A stretch of DNA of 64,000 bases, from the NCBI GenBank assembly GCA_964648335.1, contig CAZYLZ010000006.1, positions 3,974-67,973 of the forward strand, read 5' to 3'. The notes under the pieces were generated by a model, which was given only the letters and a program-made list of their open reading frames with translations, searched no databases and had not been told where the DNA came from. Made by a program: the position numbers and the translations under genes. Shown piece by piece: positions 3,566 to 45,935 of the stretch; the stretch's first letter is position 1; the number at the start of each line of letters is the position of its first letter. The DNA is from an uncultured Candidatus Saccharibacteria bacterium (GTDB lineage Bacteria; Patescibacteriota; Minisyncoccia; Phycocordibacterales; UBA2100).

Positions 3566-6500
3566 CTATGGGCTTTCACCCCACGCACCGATAACGACCG
3601 ACGGCGGTGGAGGTGGTGGAGGTGGGGGCGGTGGGGGCGTATCGTCGTTCACTATCGTGCATTGCTTCGTTTCGCCTGCGGCTATGGTTCCACTGCATAG
3701 AGGTCCGAGCGTCTTTGCGTAGCCCGCGACTCCCGGCTCTTCATCTACGGTGTAGGCCCCCGGGTCGAGCACGACCGAAACTCCCGGCGAATCGGTACCG
3801 GGAAATGTAGCCTGGCTCACGTTGGTGCCCGAGACCGTCATCGTAAAGTCCGCTGCGACCGACGATCCGGTGTTGTCGTTGACCACGTGCTTTACCACGT
3901 AGATGGTGCCCGTGGTCGGCGGCGGCGGCGGTACTATGGCCGCCGCAGGACACACCTGCGCTCCGATAAAACTAAAGATACCTTGCATGTCTGCGGACGT
4001 CGGCGAGATAAAGAAGTTGTCGCCGTCGCCGTTTTCTTGCACTACTTGGTAGTACACCCTAACCGGGATGTGATCGAGATAGAAGTCGCGCGTGTTTACC
4101 GTCGCGTTAGAAGTCACGCGCACGCGGAACTTGCTTTGGTCGAAGTCGCCCTGCGTCCAGCTGCGACCCCACGTGTCGCCACTGTTACCCAAGACACCGA
4201 CATGCGAATGTGATGTCGATTCTCCCGAGTCGGTCTTAGAAACCCAGTTGGCACCCGCGTTGTACGAGAGCTCTACGCGCAGGCTGTTCGTTCCCGTTAC
4301 CGAGTCAAGCCACCAGTTGGGCCGAACTTCGATACCGGTGATGACCGCGTTTGGTGGAACAGAGAGACCGTATCCAGAATAGACATGGCGATCCCCTGCT
4401 CCGTCGGTATTCTGCGCTGCAACGTCGTCGTCCACATACGCTTTGTCGGGACTCACCTCGAAGCCGTTGCCGTCTCCTCCCGAGTCAGCAACATTGCCTG
4501 CGGGCGACTGCAACCCAGTATCGCCGTTAATTATTCCGGTCGTGTCGAAGAACGAGCCGTCGGCGTGCGGCGCATTCGTAACGGTTCCGCTTGCCAGACC
4601 TGCCAAAAGCGCACGTCCTGCAGTAGCACCGTAGTGGATGGTAAAGATGGTCGTTCCGCTTGCTTTTGCGGCGTCGGCTGCAGAGTAGGCCTGTGCGACA
4701 GGATCGGTGACAATGCTCCAGCTCACAACCGCATACAGATGTGTCACTCGCGGTACGGTACCGCCCGACGAAGTATTGAGTACGCCAAAGTGCGTCGTCC
4801 AGTTGTTTACTTCGGCAACGGTCCATGCGCCACCTAGAGGATTAGACGACATCGTCCATGTGTAGTCCGTGTAGTTTGATGAGAGGTTGTGCCCTACATC
4901 CACGGCCTGGGTGATGCTGTTCTCTGCCACCAGCTGGATTGCACCGTTACTCCCTGCCGTCTCTTTTGCAATCGCATGCACTGTCACCCTAATGTTCGAC
5001 GCGTTTGCAGGCACGGTCGCATCGGGAAACGCATACGTCTGTGTTACCGCTCCTGCCGCGCTGTTTGATACATAGGTAGTATCGGAGTCGTTGGTAGAAA
5101 CAGCCGCTACCGACGTTCCGGTGTTTGCGATCCAGGCCGTGTATCCGCCGATTGTTTGGGACTGTACCGTCGCACTGCCGGGGATTGTGTAGTAGACCTT
5201 GGTCTGCACCTGGTCGACCGAGAGCGTCGAATTGTTGGTGCACGAAAAGCCTGGGTCTACGTTCTCGAGTCGTGCGGTAAAGTTGGTGCTGTTGATCTCG
5301 GCTGGAGTCCAGGTGCGCCCCCAGGTGTTGGTGCTGCCACCGAACACCAACACCTGATCGCTGCTGCCGAGACCCGCAACATCGTTTGCCGTGAACGTAG
5401 TGCCGTTGGGAGCCAGATCGATATCGAGCTCGCATCCAGACGAGTCGCTCGACTTGGCTTCTGCTGTAACTTCGATACCGACAATAGTCGCCGTAGGCGG
5501 CACCAGGAATCCGAAGTTAGCGTACCGTTGTCGGTGCCCTGCTACCGCGTCCGTCGCATACTGGTTGTCGCTCGTAAACGCGCGCGTCGCGTTGGCAAAC
5601 TGGTCGACACCACCTTGAGCAGTAGCTGCCGCCGGCGCATTAAACCCGACCGAGCCGGCAATCGTGTACGACACAACGGCGTACACCTGGGTTACGCGCG
5701 GAGTGGTCGCTCCTGTCGATGCGTTAAGTACACCGAACTTGTAGCTCCACGCATTCACGTCTGCCACAGTCCACGATCCACCGAACGGATCTGTCGCCAT
5801 GGTCCAGGTGTAATCGGTGTACGTACTCGACAGCGAGTGCCCCGCATCGGCAACAAGGGTTCCTGCATTTTCTGCCACCAATACCACAGTGCCTGTTGTA
5901 CCACCGGTCTCCTTGGCGATCGCATGAAGCGTCACCGAAATATTGGTAGCGCCCGCGGGAATACCGGCATTTGCCAAAAGGTATGTCTGGGCCTGGACCG
6001 CCGTATTGATATACGAGACATCGCCATCATTTGTGTTTATCGCCGTCACCTTCGTACCGTTGTTCGCGCTCCACCCGCTATAGGTACCGAGTGCCGATGC
6101 TTGCAAAGTTTGCGAACCGGGCGTCGATCCAGAAGGCTCGTTAGGATCGCCATCAGAGACGAGAATGAGTACTTTCTGTTTCGATGGATCGTGCCGCGGG
6201 CCGTTCAGTTCGTCGTTGGCGACAGTGATCGCCGCCGAAAGATCGCTGCCCACCGATGAGTTCGATCCGGTGATCGAGTTTATGGCACTTTTGACGGTGG
6301 CGTAAGCATTGCTGAGAACTCCATTAGCGGGGATTGACGCTGCTGAGCCGTTGAGTCCGCCAAAGCTGCCTGCGCCGATCTTAGGTAGTGTTACCACGCC
6401 GGAATAGAGATTCACCAGAGCTGTCGCGGCAGCATTTTCGTCAGCGCGATCGGTCGAACTCATGCTCCCCGAACGGTCGAGTATCACCACCGTATCGGCG

Positions 6501-20184: not shown

Positions 20185-20698
20185 AGAATGTTCGGATTGC
20201 TTTCGCTCGGCGACTGGCTCGGTCGTACTGATGGCGGAAAAGTGTCCGGTAGATTCGAGTATGGGCTTCACGTATGAAGCAGCGGTTAACAAAAAACCCA
20301 GGACATTGATCCAGGGTAGTACTGTCTACGAGCTCCACGAAAAACAGACCGTTCAAGTCGTGCTTTTCTGCAATCTCTTCGTTCAGATACGAGCCGGATC
20401 GTCTGTCGTTAACCGTCATACACGAGAAGCTCTCGCGTATGCGTATAGAAATACTCCTATAAGCGGGCATCGTCAAGCAGACAAAGGATGAAAATGATGG
20501 TCGCATGTCTAACTAATGGAGAAATCGCGGCTCAGGCACCAGTGGCAATCACTGGCCCAGAGGCCTGCACGGACGTCAATATTTTTTTAACTCTCTGCAT
20601 GGTAGTGTTTTCGATTGACCGGTCTGCGGTCAGCTTTATCAACGCCTTTGCAGGCGTATTCTGCAAAGGTATTTACCGGATTACAGAATCATTTCAGT

Positions 20699-22693
20699 AT
20701 GACTAGCATTTCTCGATACAGCTCGACAGATACGATCGCGCTTGCCGTTGCCATCGTGGCACTCATAGCGCTCGTGTTCTCGCCGATTTCTCATATTACT
20801 AAGGCAAACTCCCTCTTGGGATCGACCCACCTCTCGATCGCGCATGCAGAAGGCGATGGAGGGGGCGGTGACGGAGGTGGAGGCGATGGCGGAGGTGGTG
20901 ATGGCGGAGGCGGAGATGGTGGTGGTGACGGAGGTGGAGATGGTGGTGGAGATGGCGGAGGTGACGGAGGCGGAGATGGTGGTGGTGACTCCGGCGGAAG
21001 CGATGGTGGAGGCAGCGACTCCGGCTCTGGAGATTCTGGCTCCGGTGACTCGGGCATGGGCAGCGACGGCGGATGCTGCGGCGGCGGAGACGACTCGGGC
21101 TCAGAAGGCGGAAGCAACGGCATTTTCGTGCCGGTAATTCCGTCGACTCCGGTCGCAAACCCTTCGTGCTCTCTCAGCTCGATCAAGATCCCGATCCCGT
21201 TCGTCGGCGACGCCGCGGTCCTCTTTTGGAGCTCGTCGAACGCCACATCGGCTTCGATCGACCACGGAATCGGGGCTCTCTCCCCTGTCTCGGTAGGTAC
21301 TCGCGTGATCTCAAGCATCACGGCGACTACCAAGTACACAATGACGGCAGTCGGTGCAAATGGGGCAAAGGCTATCTGCTCGACGACAGTTACCGTGACG
21401 CCTGTCACGCCAAAACCTACCTGTGTCATCACTGCGACCCCAGGATCGATCGCAACGGGCGGCCATAGCGTCCTTTCTTGGAACTCGACTGACGCCGCAT
21501 CGGCAACGATCGACAACGGATTGGGATCGGTCATGACGAGCGGCGCTCAGAGCGTCTCTCCAACGGCAAACACTCAGTACACTATGACCGTTACAGGTAC
21601 CGGCGGTACCGCTACCTGCAACGCGACGGTAGTAGTCACGAATGTCCCTCCTCCTGCACAGCCAACATGCACGATCTCGGCGTACCCTTCTGAGGTCTCT
21701 CAGGGCGGATCGTCGGTACTCACCTGGTCGTCGACAAACGCATCGTCGGCATCCTTGAATGGCGGCATCGGGGCCGTGTCGACCAATGGATCACGATCAG
21801 TGACTCCGTCGTCAAACACAACCTATGTCCTAACGGTGACAGGTTCGGGCGGAACCGCGACATGCAGTGCACCAGTGACGATCAAGAACACTCCTCCAAC
21901 GCAGCCTTCGTGCACCCTCTCGGCCAGCCCGACACAGGTCGTGGCAGGCGGCGCGAGCGTCCTCTCGTGGACCTCGAACAACGCGACATCGGCAACCTTG
22001 GGTGCATTTGGAACGGTCGCCGTAAACGGATCGACCACCGTAACCCCGAGCGTCAACACAACGTACACACTCACCGTAACCGGTGCAGGAGGCACTGCGA
22101 CGTGCACGGCACACGTGACTATCAAGTCTGTACAGACATACACTCCGACCTGCTCTATCTGGGCAATCCCGGATGAGCAGATCGTTCCTGGTGGATCCAC
22201 GGCACTCTCGTGGTCTTCGACCAACGCATCGTCGGCATCGATCGATAACGGCATCGGGGCAGTGAGCCTCGAGGGCACACGTACCGTGTCGAATCTCTGG
22301 GACGACACCATCTTCACGATGAACGTTTCGGGCCAGGGCGGAACAGCACAGTGCTCGGTACCGGTATTCCTCAAGGAGACGACTCCAAAGCCGCCGAAAA
22401 AGCCAACCTGTGATATCCACATGGGTGGCAAGAACGCATACGGTGCCGAAGAGACCATCGCATGGAACACCGACGACGACGTCGACTCGGTAGAGATCGA
22501 GGGCGCCGGCGAAGTCCCTAAGCACGGATGGCGCGGCATCATGAAGCTCGACAAGCAGACCACCTTCAAGATGAAGGTAAAGAAAGGAACCCAGGTCACC
22601 GAATGCTCTTGCGTAGGAAACCCTATCGAGGACAAGTCGGCAGACTGGAGCAGCTGGTCTAACCAGGGCTGGCAGCACAGCGCGTGGTACTAG
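20699..22693 (+). CDS. Secreted/anchored tandem-repeat surface protein with Gly/Asp-rich low-complexity tract and 5-6 Ig-like ~85-aa repeats
   Basis: TM/signal N-terminus. (GDGGG)n then (SGSGD)n tract. Repeats of the form PTCTISA.P..V..GGSSVLTWSSTNASSASL.GIGAVS..TYVLTVTGSGGTATC. Start set at MTSISRY (20699). Confidence 0.65.
   Translation: MTSISRYSSTDTIALAVAIVALIALVFSPISHITKANSLLGSTHLSIAHAEGDGGGGDGGGGDGGGGDGGGGDGGGDGGGDGGGDGGGDGGGDGGGDSGGSDGGGSDSGSGDSGSGDSGMGSDGGCCGGGDDSGSEGGSNGIFVPVIPSTPVANPSCSLSSIKIPIPFVGDAAVLFWSSSNATSASIDHGIGALSPVSVGTRVISSITATTKYTMTAVGANGAKAICSTTVTVTPVTPKPTCVITATPGSIATGGHSVLSWNSTDAASATIDNGLGSVMTSGAQSVSPTANTQYTMTVTGTGGTATCNATVVVTNVPPPAQPTCTISAYPSEVSQGGSSVLTWSSTNASSASLNGGIGAVSTNGSRSVTPSSNTTYVLTVTGSGGTATCSAPVTIKNTPPTQPSCTLSASPTQVVAGGASVLSWTSNNATSATLGAFGTVAVNGSTTVTPSVNTTYTLTVTGAGGTATCTAHVTIKSVQTYTPTCSIWAIPDEQIVPGGSTALSWSSTNASSASIDNGIGAVSLEGTRTVSNLWDDTIFTMNVSGQGGTAQCSVPVFLKETTPKPPKKPTCDIHMGGKNAYGAEETIAWNTDDDVDSVEIEGAGEVPKHGWRGIMKLDKQTTFKMKVKKGTQVTECSCVGNPIEDKSADWSSWSNQGWQHSAWY
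20862..21060 (+). repeat. Coding microsatellite-like (GGN GAY)n tract encoding (GDGGG)n/(SGSGD)n
   Basis: ggcgatggagggggcggtgacggaggtggaggcgatggcggaggtggtgatggc... periodic repeat, slippage-prone. Confidence 0.8.
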
Positions 22694-23313: not shown

Positions 23314-24294
23314 CTATCGCTGCATGATTCCTGCCCGTTCAAACCGGTAGACCTTTTCTGCGACTTTGCGCGACAGCGCTTCGGGCAGATAGCAGCGAAT
23401 CTGGGTGCGTTTCCAGCTGTACCAGTTCTTTTCGGGCGATTCGAGCCCTCGTATCACGCCTACCGTGGCTCGATCGACCGAGCTAAGAAACGAGTTCATC
23501 TCTTCATCGCTGGTACCGATACGACGCGCGATGAATACCGGGATGTTCGTCAGGGTCGGTATCCCGTCTTTTTCGACATTTCCGCTCAGCTTGATCGTAC
23601 GCTTTTCCGACTGCTTGAGATCAGTCGCGTCCGTTATTCCAAGCAAGAAAAATAGCGGCGACTCGATGGGAAGTACCGCCTGCTCCCCGTTATGGACGAA
23701 GGTGCAGGTGTACTCAATGAGCCCTGGAGATCGTTCGGCAAAAGTGCTAGTAGTGAGCAGGTTCACTAGAGGACCGTAATCCTCGTCAATGAGTTCGCGT
23801 GTGCGTAGTGGTCGACGTTTGGCAAGCTCGGCGACATTGTCGAGCGTCATTGTCCTCATCGTCACTTCCATAGGATCCGTGTAGGTCACGAGAATCCTCG
23901 CATCGTCATCCATCAATCCTGCGATCGGTCGCAACAGTTTAATACGAACGTCAGAGTCGAGAGGCAAAGGAGTTACGATTTTCCTCATTGCCTCGGCATC
24001 AATAACTCCCGTACCATTGACCTCGACGATGACGTCGCCGCACTGCATTCCTGCTTTCTCTGCAGGAGATTTGGCGCGGACCCCTTTCACAAAGACGCCA
24101 CGAATTCTGTCGGCACGCTTATACCGTCGCGAGGAGTTTGTTGCATCAGTGCAGTCGTAGGTGTTCACGAAGCCGCTCAGCATCGAACCGAGCTCGACTC
24201 CGATTACCTGTGCGTAGCGCGGAGTGAGCGGCGTTTCGGCCTGCGCGAAGTTTGTTACGAGAAGTGAGAACAGAATAAACAGCGTGTATCGCAT
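23314..24294 (-). CDS. Secreted PDZ-domain protein
   Basis: Signal peptide MRYTLFILFSLLVTNFAQA. PDZ-like GVFVKGVRAKSPAEKAGMQCGDVIVEVNG. Confidence 0.5.
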   Translation of the reverse strand: MRYTLFILFSLLVTNFAQAETPLTPRYAQVIGVELGSMLSGFVNTYDCTDATNSSRRYKRADRIRGVFVKGVRAKSPAEKAGMQCGDVIVEVNGTGVIDAEAMRKIVTPLPLDSDVRIKLLRPIAGLMDDDARILVTYTDPMEVTMRTMTLDNVAELAKRRPLRTRELIDEDYGPLVNLLTTSTFAERSPGLIEYTCTFVHNGEQAVLPIESPLFFLLGITDATDLKQSEKRTIKLSGNVEKDGIPTLTNIPVFIARRIGTSDEEMNSFLSSVDRATVGVIRGLESPEKNWYSWKRTQIRCYLPEALSRKVAEKVYRFERAGIMQR

Positions 24295-36362: not shown

Positions 36363-36746
36363 TTACCCCCGAAGCGTCTCTTTAGGTTCTGCCGCTGTGG
36401 ATAGCATATGTGCATCGGGCCCTCGAGCGCTTCCAGCGGCGTCAAGGCTACTCTGGAGGATGCGCAGTATCCCCCAGATGGACACGGCTACGAACAGGAT
36501 GAGTATGCCCCAGCCGAAAATCTGCGACCGCTTAGCAAGACCGCCCTCTTCGAGATTCTGCGTCGAGTTGAATCCGATCCACATATAGTAGACAACCATG
36601 AGCGTAAGGATGGTCGGTATAAGCAAATCTATGATGCCGACGAACCAATTGACCAGATCGTCGAACGTCTTAGGTGCGGCAAAGGCCACCGCCGGCATCA
36701 CTATCAAGATGGCGAGGAGGAAGGTTATGCGTCGTGTGTACGCCAT
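36363..36746 (-). CDS. Small secreted two-TM membrane protein M3
   Basis: Signal peptide ..MPAVAFA|AP, TM1, loop NSTQNLEEGGLAKRSQ, TM2. Confidence 0.5.
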   Translation of the reverse strand: MAYTRRITFLLAILIVMPAVAFAAPKTFDDLVNWFVGIIDLLIPTILTLMVVYYMWIGFNSTQNLEEGGLAKRSQIFGWGILILFVAVSIWGILRILQSSLDAAGSARGPDAHMLSTAAEPKETLRG

Positions 36747-42711: not shown

Positions 42712-43344
42712 CTAAGCCTTCAGGACGACAACTTCACCCGCCTTACCAGCAACATCCTTGGGTTTTATCGTCAGCTTGTCGAGCATTTCTGCCTTTTCGA
42801 CGCCTGCCTCCTTAAGAAAGAGTTTGAGCGCATCTTTGTCACCAACGCCTTCCCAGTGAATCGGAATAATTATCTTGGCCTCGAGCTTGACGGCAAGCTT
42901 ATGCGCTTCTTGGGCATCGAGTACGCCCGAGCCGCCTATCGGCACAAACACCACGTCGACGTCTTCGATAGCCTCGATGGCATCTGCGGGCAACTGCATC
43001 TCGCCGATTGCTCCCAAATACAGCACATGGAGTCCGTCCATGGTTACCGTATAGATAGTGTTGATGAGTTCTTTGCCGCCGTAAAACGTTTTGGTAGCAA
43101 ATCCTGCCGCGGTTATCGATCCTACTTCGTACTCGCCCGGTCCATTGATGGCAAAAGGCGCTTTGTCGCCGCGCGAGGCCTCGGCAACGCCGTTCATGTC
43201 GGGGTGGTTGGCAGAAACAAACACGACATCGGACCCAAAGCTCATTGATTTGAGTTTTGATTCTTTGGAAACAGGACCGAACGCGAGTGTCGTGTCGCCT
43301 GCCGATACTTTTACTGCTTCACCTGCGTGGTACGTGATTATCAT
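42712..43344 (-). CDS. Metallo-beta-lactamase-fold hydrolase
   Basis: MBL-like pattern in a ~210-aa UlaG/YtnP-size protein. Confidence 0.5.
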   Translation of the reverse strand: MIITYHAGEAVKVSAGDTTLAFGPVSKESKLKSMSFGSDVVFVSANHPDMNGVAEASRGDKAPFAINGPGEYEVGSITAAGFATKTFYGGKELINTIYTVTMDGLHVLYLGAIGEMQLPADAIEAIEDVDVVFVPIGGSGVLDAQEAHKLAVKLEAKIIIPIHWEGVGDKDALKLFLKEAGVEKAEMLDKLTIKPKDVAGKAGEVVVLKA

Positions 43345-43497
43345 AGTAGATTTTGTTAGTGTGTCTTCGAGTTTAGAAAATCTTAGATCCCGAGCGATTC
43401 CGCAACGAGGGATAAGATACCCGCAATCGTATCACAAAAATGGTGTGGTAGAAAAAGCCAGAAAGTAGGCCGTTTTTTAAGCCTTATCGCAAAATAC

Positions 43498-43525
43498 TTG
43501 ACATATTTTACATACGTGCTAAGAT
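43498..43525 (+). promoter_or_regulatory. Near-consensus sigma70-type promoter with extended -10
   Basis: TTGACA (43498-43503), 16-nt spacer, TGcTAAGAT (43517-43525). Predicted TSS near 43532. Confidence 0.6.
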
Positions 43526-43531
43526 ACTCAT

Positions 43532-44171
43532 ATCTGCGCCATCGATCGCGTGTCCGCCGACGGACATAGGGGCAGATACCGCTTTGGGAAGGAGGAATGT
43601 GTGTATCACACTCGCGACCCGACCTTCTAGTATTGCTCTTTCGTATATCAAGCGGCCTGAACAAGGCACGTGCAAAATAAAGCGCAAAAAACGCAGGGAG
43701 TTCACCCGACGAATCGCGAATCCTCGAGAGCAGAACGGCACCCATGCCCAATGTTCCATGGACTAGGATTGCAAACGGTAACCCCACCGGGACTCGTGTC
43801 CCACCATGCGCAGAGCGCTTAAGTTGCGCGAATACCGAACCTCAGCCTTCACTGGTTGAGGTTCACTCTTTTATACGCACCCGGATGCGTTGACACCGCG
43901 TACGGGCATGCGAGTATGTCGTTTCCTGCGCCTTGGCATCAAGGACAAGCAGGGTTGCTCTGTATACAGGAGGACGACATGATTCGAGCGGATCCGGGTA
44001 CTGGTCTCACAAAACCAATCACGGCCGGCGGACACTAACCCGCCGACTTCCCTCTCGACTCTGTTTGAAGGAGTGCGCGATGCCCTTTGCGCGAGACGGT
44101 CCCTAGGACCATCAGCATCCTCATCTCACCTCAGGACCCCTGCCCTAGCCGGCATGTGGGTCCTCTTTTTT
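43532..44171 (+). ncRNA. Candidate ~630-nt non-coding transcript (identity unresolved: RNase P RNA, tmRNA, 6S RNA or a novel large RNA)
   Basis: Runs from the promoter to an intrinsic terminator at 44133-44171 (aggaccc..18-nt loop..gggtcct ctttttt). No convincing ORF (only short or Arg-rich frames). Many internal hairpins. rpsA has its own promoter downstream. Confidence 0.35.
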
Positions 44172-44197
44172 GCAAAAAACCCGATTTCTGCTATAGT
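44170..44197 (+). promoter_or_regulatory. Putative rpsA promoter
   Basis: TTGCAA (44170-44175), 16-nt spacer, TATAGT (44192-44197), ~95 nt upstream of the rpsA ATG. Confidence 0.45.
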
Positions 44198-44291
44198 CCT
44201 TTCCACGCATTACTAGTCCGATGCTAGTGGTAACCCTCGTGTGCTCCCTACCCCGGCTGCTCGCACCGAAACCATAGCTTCGATATAAACA

Positions 44292-45425
44292 ATGCCAACA
44301 AAAGAAACCGAGGCTAAGACAGCCTCGACTGCGGTTGCCGCAGAAGAAGTGGTCCCCGAGACGGTCATGTCCGTCCTTACCAAAGACATCCCGGCACGCC
44401 CGAGCGTCGGCGACGTGGTCGAAGGACCGGTCGTCGCTATCGGACGCGCACGTGTGTTCGTCGACCTCCACCCATACGGAACGGGTATCATTTACGGCCG
44501 CGAGTATCTCTCGGCGCGCGATACGCTTAAGAACGTCAATGTAGGAGACCTCATCACCGCAAAGGTGGTCGAAGTCGAGAACGCCGACGGCTACATCGAG
44601 ATCTCGCTTCGCGAAGCTCGCCAGGCTCTTATGTGGAGCGAGGCAGAGGCAGCCGTTACCGACAAGGTGGTCTTTAGCTTGCCTGTCAAAGACGCGAACA
44701 AGGGCGGACTCATCATCGAGTGGCAGGGCCTTCAGGGCTTCTTGCCAGCATCACAGTTGGGCTCCACCCACTACCCACGCGTCACCGACGGCGATAAGGA
44801 CAAGATCTTCGTCGAGCTCAAGAAGCTCATCGGCGAGAAGCTCGAGGTCATGATCATCACCGCAAACCCCAAGGAGCAGAAGCTCATCTTTAGCGAGAAG
44901 GGTGCCGGAGGTGCCGAGCGCCAGACATTGGTCGGCAAATACCAGATCGGCGACGTCTTCGACGGCGAGGTCACCGGTGCCACCGAGTTCGGCGTATTCG
45001 TCAAGATCGAGGAAGGACTCGAGGGCTTGGTCCACATTTCCGAGATGGATTGGGGCTTGGTCGAGGATCCAAAGAAGCGCTTCAAGGTGGGCGATCACGT
45101 AAAGGTGAAGGTCATCGAGATCAAGGACGACAAAGTCTCGCTCTCGATCAAGGCTCTTACCGAGGACCCATGGAAGACTGCTGCGGCCAAGTTCAAGAAA
45201 GGCGAGCGCGTCGACGCGGTCGTGATCAAGTACAACAAGCACGGAGCACTCGCCTCTATAGAAGAAGGTGTTGCAGGCTTGGTGCACGTATCCGAGTTTG
45301 CCGACGAGAACGAGCTTCGCCAGAACCTCGAGCTCGGCAAGGTATACCCGTTCTCTATCTCGTTCTTCGAGCCAAAGGACCGCCGCATGACACTCTCGTT
45401 TGCCGGCGAAAAGAAAAAGAAATAA
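44292..45425 (+). CDS. rpsA: 30S ribosomal protein S1, short four-S1-domain form
   Basis: Four S1 domains (GDVVEG.V, GDVFDGEVTG..FGVFV, GDHVKVKV, GERVDAVV..HG). 377 aa. Confidence 0.8.
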   Translation: MPTKETEAKTASTAVAAEEVVPETVMSVLTKDIPARPSVGDVVEGPVVAIGRARVFVDLHPYGTGIIYGREYLSARDTLKNVNVGDLITAKVVEVENADGYIEISLREARQALMWSEAEAAVTDKVVFSLPVKDANKGGLIIEWQGLQGFLPASQLGSTHYPRVTDGDKDKIFVELKKLIGEKLEVMIITANPKEQKLIFSEKGAGGAERQTLVGKYQIGDVFDGEVTGATEFGVFVKIEEGLEGLVHISEMDWGLVEDPKKRFKVGDHVKVKVIEIKDDKVSLSIKALTEDPWKTAAAKFKKGERVDAVVIKYNKHGALASIEEGVAGLVHVSEFADENELRQNLELGKVYPFSISFFEPKDRRMTLSFAGEKKKK

Positions 45426-45445: not shown

Positions 45446-45508
45446 AACGGGCGCCAGGGCGCCCGTTTTGTATACAGAAACCCCGGCACGTGTGCCGGGG
45501 TTTTGGGA
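45446..45508. terminator. Tandem terminator hairpins
   Basis: aacgggcgccagggcgcccgtttt and aaccccggcacgtgtgccggggtttt. Confidence 0.7.
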
Positions 45509-45521
45509 TTCTTCGTACAGA

Positions 45522-45935
45522 CTACTCGAGCTTAAAAATGGCAGTCGACGTCTGCTGCAGCATCCGTACGCTCGCCTCGAGAGCAGAAAGCCCTTCGCAC
45601 ATACTCCGCGTGTCGGGCACGAACGAGCTACCCTTCTGCATGATCGAACGTGCGCAGAGTCGGTAGATGCCGAGGTAGAGCAGTATATCTGCGCTCTGAC
45701 TCCTCGTGGCTTCGACGCCATGGCGGGCCTTGTACGTTTCGGCCCAGATTACCATTCGGTCTAGTATCAGATGGACCTCGTCGAAGCTTTTATTCACCGA
45801 GCGCAAGATCTGGTTCGCCTCGTCCATTCGAATTATCACGAACGTAAGCCCCCCGAAGGCGCAGAGTACTGCGATAAGGCTTATGGTTTTGAGGACATCG
45901 ATGTCCATACGGACCTCCGTTGTTGCTCTCGGCAA
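45522..45935 (-). CDS. Hypothetical membrane protein
   Basis: TM helix ISLIAVLCAFGGLTFVII. 137 aa. Confidence 0.35.
   Translation of the reverse strand: MPRATTEVRMDIDVLKTISLIAVLCAFGGLTFVIIRMDEANQILRSVNKSFDEVHLILDRMVIWAETYKARHGVEATRSQSADILLYLGIYRLCARSIMQKGSSFVPDTRSMCEGLSALEASVRMLQQTSTAIFKLE

Follow-up and report, generated by a model that had tools for sequence, protein, structure and literature searches.

The intergenic gap upstream of rpsA was analyzed in the 64-kb window (the whole stretch of DNA under study, to which all positions refer unless a contig is named). The gap measures 947 bp (43345-44291; ~950 bp in the earlier note), with an MBL-fold hydrolase gene on its left and rpsA on its right. 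It holds a predicted autonomous promoter-to-terminator unit that contains no normal gene and precedes an rpsA with a promoter of its own. The unit contains three short open reading frames (ORFs), each led by a Shine-Dalgarno (SD) sequence. The gap is probably not one large structured RNA. The explanation that we tentatively prefer is that a cassette of translated, leader-peptide-like mini-ORFs occupies a variable hot spot. Ribosome pausing on these mini-ORFs would remodel hairpins and affect termination at two terminators (T1 and T2) and read-through into rpsA.

The unit is carried by ~20 metagenome contigs, all from one species, which form two strain groups. Contigs of the window type are 99-100% identical, and those of the L083 type are ~95% identical to the window.

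Promoters and Terminators of the Unit

The elements of the unit are listed below in the order of transcription.

43498-43525, plus strand: promoter P1, TTGACA-16-TGcTAAGAT, with an extended -10 and an A/T-rich tract before it (10/12 matches plus TG)
43531-43578, plus strand: 5' stem-loop at the predicted transcription start, with outer helix 43531-37/43572-78 and inner hairpin 43550-56/43561-67 (from the fold)
43590-43630, plus strand: SD1 (AGGAGG, 43590-95, 5-nt spacer) and sORF1, GTG at 43601 to TAG at 43630, 9 codons, MYHTRDPTF
43631-43836, plus strand: structured stretch with stable local hairpins at 43655-67, 43728-56 (inner 43737-48), and 43789-802, and no conserved ORF
43837-43873, plus strand: T1, internal and intrinsic-terminator-like, an 11-bp G+C-rich hairpin (43837-43864) with a 6-nt loop, then ACUCUUUUA (from the scanner listing)
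43890-43917, plus strand: candidate internal promoter P2, TTGACA (43890-95), 16-nt spacer, and TG-c-GAGTAT (43909-17) (read from the sequence)
43968-44038, plus strand: SD2 (AGGAGG, 43968-73, 5-nt spacer) and sORF2, ATG at 43979 to TAA at 44038, 19 codons, MIRADPGTGLTKPITAGGH
44068-44106, plus strand: SD3 (AAGGAG, 44068-73, 6-nt spacer) and sORF3, ATG at 44080 to TAG at 44106, 8 codons, MPFARDGP
44133-44171, plus strand: T2, intrinsic terminator, stem 44133-39/44158-64 and inner helix 44141-44/44151-54, then UCUUUUUU (from the fold)

Promoter P1 and terminator T2 had been placed at these positions by the earlier note, and both are present. The two hexamers of P1 are identical in the second strain group, and the changes are confined to spacer bases. 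A promoter of the same type, TTGACA-16-TG-n-TAATAT, is found at the equivalent place in the relatives L006 and L012. The hairpin of T2 (44133-44164) has a folding energy of -18.4 kcal/mol and a pair probability of 0.98, with its U-tract behind; the corresponding values for the T1 hairpin are -18.5 kcal/mol and 1.00. Both terminators are strong and conserved between the strain groups. The strain differences in T1 (43850 and 43853) both lie in the loop, and the stem is kept. The stem of T2 is conserved across strains and the length of its U-tract, which overlaps the -35 of the rpsA promoter, varies. T2 was missed by a simple terminator scanner, which took the inner helix as an over-long loop. 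T1 is located 207 nt past sORF1, and T2 is located 26 nt past the stop codon of sORF3, directly before rpsA. P1, T1, and T2 thus supply the parts of a sigma70-type unit, in which -35 and -10 elements are followed, on one strand, by a G+C-rich hairpin with a U-tract.

The -35 of P2 is perfect and begins 17 nt past the end of the T1 U-tract (43873). It is accompanied by a TG extension and by a -10 with 3/6 matches, including A2 and T6, which falls below the -10 threshold of the scanner. Both hexamers are kept in the second strain group, where the sole nearby difference (43902) is in the spacer. These features suggest that P2 is an internal promoter that the scanner did not call.

The single unit of ~630 nt described in the earlier note is therefore broken by the T1 hairpin with its U-tract and by the TTGACA-16-TGcGAGTAT element. 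The arrangement suggests two tandem, strongly structured promoter-to-terminator units rather than one 630-nt RNA. Unit A would run from P1 through the 5' stem-loop, SD1 and sORF1, and ~200 nt of hairpins to T1. Unit B would run from P2 through SD2 and sORF2 and then SD3 and sORF3 to T2, which abuts the rpsA promoter.

SD-Led Mini-ORFs

The unit had been described as having no ORF, or only spurious ones, which does not hold in detail. Three SD-plus-start pairs are present on the plus strand, compared with 0.13 in 5000 dinucleotide shuffles (P(>=3) = 2e-4), and at least three such sites occur in 0.7% of the genomic windows of 642 nt. The maximum for a genomic window, six SD-like sites, is produced by a GGAGG(T/C)GG(A/T)G... 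tandem repeat at 20858-20980 on the plus strand, a repetitive coding segment within a 692-aa ORF (20615-22693). Of the 42 long genes in the window, only 6 have so much as an SD-like 4-mer ahead of their first in-frame ATG, and neither rpsA nor the MBL gene has one. Several clearly real genes use strong SDs (for example those starting at 24294, 34063, 45918, and 46419 on the minus strand and at 36729 on the plus strand), and the SD signal is therefore functionally meaningful in this organism.

None of the three mini-ORFs is disrupted in the L083 group. sORF2 and sORF3 are unchanged, and sORF1 carries one synonymous change (43606) and one conservative replacement of F by V (43625). A 79-nt insertion in this group, after 43586 and just upstream of SD1, adds a further mini-ORF (GGGAG-8-ATG, encoding MKKY-stop). 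The insertion and all six of the small indels lie outside the SD-plus-sORF spans. The longest block that is invariant among the ~20 contigs (71 nt, 43968-44038) begins precisely where SD2 begins, ends with the final base of the sORF2 stop codon, and is directly bordered by differences at 43967 and 44039. A 27-codon ORF beginning with the ATG at 43597 was rejected in favor of the 9-codon GTG frame; in the other strain its start is lost and its changes are mostly non-synonymous.

The motif R-(A)-D-(G)-P appears in all three peptides and is written with different codons. The nominal chance of this is 3e-8, and we estimate ~1e-3 after allowing for any tripeptide motif.

The mini-ORFs are also embedded in predicted structure. 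In transcripts started at P1, SD2 and the AUG of sORF2 can pair with 43916-28 in a helix of -25.4 kcal/mol. A transcript start near 43924 would drop the strand 43916-22, which sequesters this AUG in the longer transcripts. The start of sORF3 lies inside the hairpin 44075-80/44087-92, where the other strain group, through G44079A, has an A-U pair in place of a G-U pair. The stop codons of sORF2 and sORF3 are in the loops of hairpins 44026-45 and 44098-110, respectively, the latter formed by the pairs 44098-102/44106-110.

Mini-ORFs in Related Species

The window belongs to a genome of the Kaiserbacteria/Paceibacterota type (Patescibacteria, the candidate phyla radiation (CPR)). Its 377-aa S1 protein is 63-79% identical to the S1 proteins of 80 metagenome-assembled genomes of this type. 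Both the MBL and the rpsA genes are present at 66 of these 80 related rpsA loci, and the spacer between them is 140 to 2263 bp long. In many species it is occupied by mscL, on the minus strand, and in others by genes for small SD-led proteins whose N-termini resemble signal peptides. Judged from this variation, the MBL-rpsA spacer is a variable hot spot. SD-plus-start sites in the 66 spacers number 41 in the rpsA sense and 18 in the antisense direction, with 12.9 +/- 3.5 expected, a three-fold enrichment in the sense direction.

The start of the sORF2 peptide is conserved in the relative L006, whose S1 protein is 76% identical. An SD in L006 is followed by MIRAGPATGTP, where the window has MIRADPGTGLT. 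The elements between the MBL gene and rpsA in L006 are, in order, a TTGACA-16-TGcTAATAT promoter, a hairpin, the SD, and the mini-ORF. Over the first nine codons, four of the six nucleotide differences from the window are synonymous third-position changes, and the local alignment of 38 nt has a z of 4.1, above all 300 shuffles. Homology with L006 is proposed solely for the segment that comprises SD2 and the first nine codons. An extended homology of unit B with L006 was rejected; a colinear chain of 6-mers gave a z of ~3 for a hand-picked segment, which is unremarkable among all spacers.

The spacer of L057 has, as in the window, the layout of promoter, ORF, terminator, ORFs, terminator, and rpsA promoter, with SD-led ORFs of 55, 38, and 4 codons. 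The window was re-read for SD-led ORFs after those of L057 had appeared. A conserved 4-codon mini-ORF with a strong SD, AGGAGGTCACAATGA(A/C)TTGGCC, encoding MNWP-stop, MTWP-stop, or MTWT-stop, is found at the same MBL-rpsA spot in three other species.

L054, spacer position 338: 4-codon mini-ORF
L057, 3638-3665: 4-codon mini-ORF
L059, spacer position 180: 4-codon mini-ORF

A 10-codon mini-ORF, M(Q/P)NRPGLKAR-stop, is common to L001 and L003.

Proposed Mechanism

From the promoter and terminator anatomy, the enrichment of SD-plus-start sites, the intactness of the mini-ORFs in both alleles, the shared motif, and the conserved start of sORF2, we tentatively infer that the unit is transcribed, with P2 active, and that the mini-ORFs yield regulatory peptides of the leader type. 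As their start or stop codons sit inside hairpins, the local structure would be remodeled when ribosomes load and pause on them. SD2 and its AUG would be occluded in transcripts that read through from P1 and free in those that begin at P2. The remodeling would then set the share of transcription that ends at T1 or T2 relative to that which runs on into rpsA.

Several points weigh against this mechanism. An MIRAxP start is found in just 1 of the ~66 related spacers, the 38-nt alignment was picked post hoc, and L006 is not distinguished from the other spacers by the colinear k-mer chain test. The R-(A)-D-(G)-P motif was defined after the peptides were seen, and part of the R-D similarity could come from CGCGA-type palindromes at the RNA level (43612-17, 43714-19, and 44091-95). 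The peptides are very short, and synonymous variation of sORF2 is lacking within the species, so that the ratio of non-synonymous to synonymous change (dN/dS) is inapplicable. About 520 of the 640 nt are unexplained by the mini-ORFs, though they have diverged by just 4.5%. SD2 and its AUG lie in a helix of -25 kcal/mol, and hence the GGAGG could have a structural role. No convincing anti-terminator that would compete with T1 or T2 was identified; the candidates seen by inspection are weak (GGUCC at 44098-102 with the GGACC of T2, and UCGCGA at 43612-17 with 43714-19) and gain no support from strain variation. A cis effect is not required, as rpsA has its own conserved promoter.

Folding and RNA Structure

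The minimum free energy (MFE) of the plus strand has a z of -4.3 relative to 60 dinucleotide shuffles, and that of the minus strand a z of -1.9. Twenty equally long genomic control windows have a mean z of -0.35, with a standard deviation of 0.74 and a minimum of -2.0, in agreement with the hairpin-rich sequence described in the earlier note. The 5' stem-loop is predicted with pair probabilities of 0.94 and an energy of -20.5 kcal/mol; the strain substitution at 43567 turns a G-U into a G-C pair, and the one at 43556 opens the loop-closing pair. The structured stretch 43631-43836 contains three 1-nt strain indels, at 43654, 43686, and 43813.

The two alleles differ by ~29 substitutions, of which 16 fall in predicted unpaired positions (38% of positions) and 13 in predicted paired positions (62%), so that the density at unpaired positions is about twice that at paired ones. 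Pairing is kept at six of the 13 paired sites by switches between G-U and G-C or A-U, and the MFE pair is broken at the other seven. Loops vary and stems stay at 43850/43853, 43744, and 43662.

These results would be accommodated by one or two stable structured RNAs that escape translation, a new noncoding RNA (ncRNA) peculiar to the lineage, in which the GGAGG runs are helix strands or binding sites for a protein or 16S rRNA. A stable stem-loop at the start, a terminator at the end, the strand asymmetry of the z score, the bias of substitutions toward loops, a divergence of the unit (4.5%) below that of the four-fold sites of rpsA (8.9%), and the lack of coding signal in any frame all favor such an RNA. 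No compensatory double substitution is present among the ~29 differences between the two allele groups, however, and more than half of the substitutions at paired sites disrupt the MFE pair. Local hairpins are common to the two alleles, but the L083 allele has other long-range helices in place of those of the window allele. The comparison for covariation that the earlier note had proposed was confined to these two groups, as no further homologs were found. The spacers of relatives that contain no ORF reach z values of -3 to -6.6; an abundance of hairpins is thus usual at this locus and has no diagnostic value. An untranslated RNA would also leave the SD-plus-start enrichment, the shared peptide motif, and the synonymous pattern in L006 unexplained. 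We regard it as somewhat unlikely.

The interpretation offered in the earlier note stands insofar as an autonomous, unusually structured unit without a normal gene precedes an rpsA that has a separate promoter. A novel large structured RNA is now less favored than the mini-ORF cassette for five reasons: an internal terminator and a candidate internal promoter divide the unit, the long-range helices are lost in the second allele, compensatory double changes are absent, ORF-less spacers of relatives have similar z values, and the three SD-led mini-ORFs show conservation at the peptide level.

Distribution, Strain Groups, and Constraint

In addition to the 79-nt insertion, the L083 type has six small indels (five of 1 nt and one of 2 nt) and a left flank, 43345-43430, that cannot be aligned. 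The identity between the two strain groups rises from 68.6% in 43345-43430 to 94-96% from 43431 onward. Comparison of L094, L096, L097, and L099 with window positions 43491-44133 identified some contigs as mosaics of both allele groups. A hypervariable segment just before T2 (44115-44133) has three alleles, and the third, in L099, is confined to 44115-44132 and differs by a 5-nt deletion plus 8 substitutions. The mosaic contigs and this third allele point to recombination between strains.

The unit appears to be absent from the two nearest relatives. In L082, whose S1 protein is 86% identical, the gap upstream of rpsA is 150 bp, the upstream gene is a different one, and the unit is missing. 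In the relative with an 87%-identical MBL protein, only 185 bp separate the gene from its divergent neighbor, too short for the unit. No homolog of the gap was found by blastn, nhmmer, or tblastx in the 80 related rpsA loci, and no paralog of the unit was found elsewhere in the 64-kb window by self-search. Phage and plasmid collections gave only chance matches of 27 nt. Pattern scans of viral contigs for the unit and a 20-mer scan of metagenome contigs each gave 0 matches, and a scan of metagenome contigs with back-translated SD+MIRA[GD]PxTG gave 8 unrelated matches inside other genes.

The divergence of the unit between strain groups, 4.5% of aligned sites, is to be compared with 8.9% at the four-fold sites of rpsA and 23.9% at those of the MBL gene. 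This low divergence is mild evidence of constraint, confounded by possible recombination. Downstream of rpsA, ~400 bp (window 45502-45914, L083 3989-4396) are not aligned by blastn between the strain groups, and past this stretch the groups are 83% identical, compared with 97.6% in rpsA. From these flanks, rpsA and the cassette form a low-divergence island. Since the unit is restricted to one species, the spacer is variable, and the rpsA promoter and leader are conserved, the unit is, as judged by this comparison, an insertion (about 43431-44170) into the hot spot, upstream of the ancestral rpsA promoter and leader.

The same data could be produced by a non-functional or decaying relic of the SD-led accessory genes of the hot spot, from which promoters, SDs, first codons, and terminators would be left. 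The range of spacer lengths with frequent mscL or small secreted proteins, the confinement to one species, and the strain indels, large insertion, and mosaic alleles are all consistent with a relic, and the low divergence may reflect recent recombination, as the synonymous divergence (dS) of rpsA (0.089) is far below that of the MBL gene (0.239). A relic is nevertheless unlikely. No residual coding signal was found in any frame, and there was no tblastx or protein similarity of the gap to other genes, including the accessory genes of the relatives. At ~5% divergence, neither group has lost a promoter, an SD, a start or stop codon of the three mini-ORFs, or a terminator, and the MIRAxPxTG start is kept across species.

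rpsA Promoter, Leader, and Neighboring Genes

The features that flank the cassette are the following.

42712-43344, minus strand: MBL-fold hydrolase gene, divergent from rpsA
43345-43430, minus strand: MBL-proximal segment, outside the conserved unit and fast-diverging between strains (68.6% identity, many indels)
44170-44291, plus strand: rpsA promoter TTGCAA-16-TGcTATAGT (44170-97) and 5' leader (44198-44291), not part of the inserted cassette
44292-45425, plus strand: rpsA, 377-aa S1-domain protein

The MBL-proximal segment presumably holds the promoter and 5' untranslated region of the MBL-fold gene, with a -10-like TAAGAT on the minus strand at 43385-43380. gyrA is located further left of the MBL-fold gene.

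The separate rpsA promoter reported in the earlier note at 44170-44197 is present and, together with its leader, is conserved in relatives, which have in common the promoter and a leader of ~100 nt with the pattern CAC GCATTACTAG ... GGTAACCC. A helix of the main leader type covaries in 6 of 7 pairs in a set of 28 sequences, of which type the window leader is a divergent member. RNAalifold returned no structure for a broad alignment of 56 rpsA leaders. In Kaiserbacteria (L001-L080), the leader occupies ~110 nt before the rpsA ATG (for example L054, 3802-3886) and consists of TATA(T)AGT, a small hairpin, and AUUAUUAAUUAAUAG, followed by GGUAA-nn-CUUCCCUGC ... ACGGUAGCGYAAG ... GCAGGGAAG-nCC. 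No Rfam match to the rpsA leader was obtained. It is probably an S1 autoregulatory leader.

In many relatives, the -35 of rpsA (CTTGC[A/G]) lies in the loop or on the 3' side of a terminator-like hairpin that is followed by a C/U tract. Such -35-overlapping hairpins, ~40 nt before the rpsA -10, were located in seven relatives.

L004, L006, L037, L039, L043, and L046: hairpin overlapping the rpsA -35
L012, for example at 3816-3844: hairpin overlapping the rpsA -35, with a 12-bp stem

In these relatives a terminator thus overlaps the rpsA promoter, an arrangement also seen for T2 in the window.

Possible contacts between the unit and its neighbors were also considered. Pairing of the unit RNA with the rpsA leader or with the MBL 5' end was rejected, the duplex energies being no better than those of shuffles. 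A 13-nt complementarity between 43760-72 and 44207-19 is at chance level. A copy of the rpsA leader inside the unit was likewise rejected, since the local alignment is no better than shuffles. The GGUAACCC box occurs in both the cassette (43776-83) and the rpsA leader (44228-35).

S1 is the protein that loads SD-less mRNAs. A bolder version of the translated mini-ORF cassette, which we judge to be quite improbable, is a sensor of translation status for S1, in which the R-A/x-D/G-P mini-peptides would pause ribosomes, gate T1 and T2, and adjust read-through into rpsA. In such a sensor, the motifs at the N- or C-terminus of the mini-peptides would be relatives of the SecM-type RAGP that act with almost no nascent chain. 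The SD-led mini-ORFs would stand in a genome whose ordinary genes are mostly without SDs, and the other Kaiserbacteria mini-ORFs at the same spot (MNWP-stop or MTWP-stop, and MQNRPGLKAR-stop) would be functional analogues.

Known RNA Families and Hidden Genes

All 4227 models of Rfam 15 were searched with cmscan on both strands of both alleles, the window and the longer L083. At the gathering threshold, nothing was found in the 64-kb window but four tRNAs, and hence no standard RNA in the gap. At E<=10, the gap gave only pntA (E 2), c4-a1b1 (E 1.6), and PVT1_6 (E 2.2) in the two alleles; the top scores for the two alleles are 14-21 bits (E 1.5-2.2), compared with thresholds of 45-54. No transfer-messenger RNA (tmRNA) was detected by ARAGORN in the window or in L083. 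The idea of a known RNA disguised by insertions (RNase P RNA, tmRNA, 6S, signal recognition particle (SRP) RNA, group I/II intron, OLE, ROOL, GOLLD, HEARO, raiA, riboswitch, or ribosomal-protein leader) is hardly credible given these chance-level hits, and its one support, the resemblance by eye of the reverse complement of 43705-43725 to a tmRNA 5' end on the minus strand, was a coincidence backed by neither ARAGORN nor Rfam.

A hidden gene or pseudogene was rejected as well. No coding signal was obtained by codon-usage log-odds in any of the six frames of 43300-44200, where the best frame remains <=0.02 across the gap, compared with 0.2-0.55 in the flanking genes. Strain indels of 1 and 2 nt break every ORF of more than 25 codons. 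The two longest minus-strand ORFs of the gap have no Pfam match, and a concatenated pseudo-protein of the six frames gave nothing at E<=10 against 5.8e9 proteins. A search for the terminal repeats of a mobile element returned only weak two-copy matches.

Comparison with Known Systems

The element is an orphan, single-species cassette that is most likely of the leader/mini-ORF kind. Should its mini-ORFs prove to be translated and to work in cis, the cassette would represent leader- or pause-peptide control in Patescibacteria (CPR), linked to the S1 gene, and R-A-(G/D)-P peptides would act at the very start of the chain. If it is instead an untranslated RNA, it would be a young structured RNA of a single species and an example of RNA origin in a hot spot of a streamlined genome. 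In either case, "ORF-free" intergenic units should be checked for SD-led ORFs of <20 codons before a large ncRNA is called.

Like OLE, ROOL, GOLLD, raiA, and HEARO, the cassette is several hundred nt in length, is rich in hairpins, is bounded by a promoter and a terminator of its own, and lacks a long ORF. Unlike these RNAs, it has no Rfam match, no homologs that could be found, and no covariation, and it contains an internal terminator, a candidate internal promoter, and SD-led mini-ORFs and is limited to one species.

The cassette resembles the autoregulatory leaders of ribosomal proteins in its position directly upstream of rpsA and in the GGUAACCC box that it has in common with the rpsA leader. 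It differs from them in that the covarying rpsA leader is separate and downstream of T2, in that the cassette has no significant similarity to that leader, and in that it is absent from related species that have the rpsA leader.

The RAPP-like ribosome arrest peptides include SecM with RAGP, ApdA/ApdP with RAPP, and ApcA with RAPG (PMC12992588, PMC10951299, PMC10951233). The arrest core is RAPP, RGPP, RAGP, or RAPG, with few substitutions tolerated; it is near the C-terminus and is insufficient without the adjacent N-terminal region (PMC12992588). The resemblance of the cassette to these systems is loose: a small ORF with Arg-Ala-x-Pro precedes another gene, the L006 homolog has IRAGP as in the SecM core, and sORF3 ends in ...RDGP-stop with the proline adjoining the stop codon. 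The cores in the window (RADP, RDP, and RDGP) are outside the tolerated set, however, and RAGP is found in the L006 homolog only. The motif is at residues 3-6 in sORF2 and in L006, and sORF3 has four residues before it. The downstream gene is rpsA and not a secretion or insertion factor. By core and by position, the cassette was therefore not assigned to this class.

Leader-peptide transcription attenuators comprise those of the trpL, hisL, pheL, and pyrL type and the attenuators of translation-stress genes that are controlled by upstream ORFs. The cassette departs from these in that no mutually exclusive anti-terminator was identified, in that the downstream rpsA has its own conserved promoter, which overlaps the T2 U-tract, and its own conserved leader, in that three mini-ORFs, two terminators, and probably two promoters are present, and in that the recurring R-(A)-D-(G)-P takes the place of a codon run for a single amino acid. 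It shares with them SD-led ORFs of 8-19 codons in a structured leader, an intrinsic terminator between the last of these ORFs and the gene, and start and stop codons embedded in hairpins.

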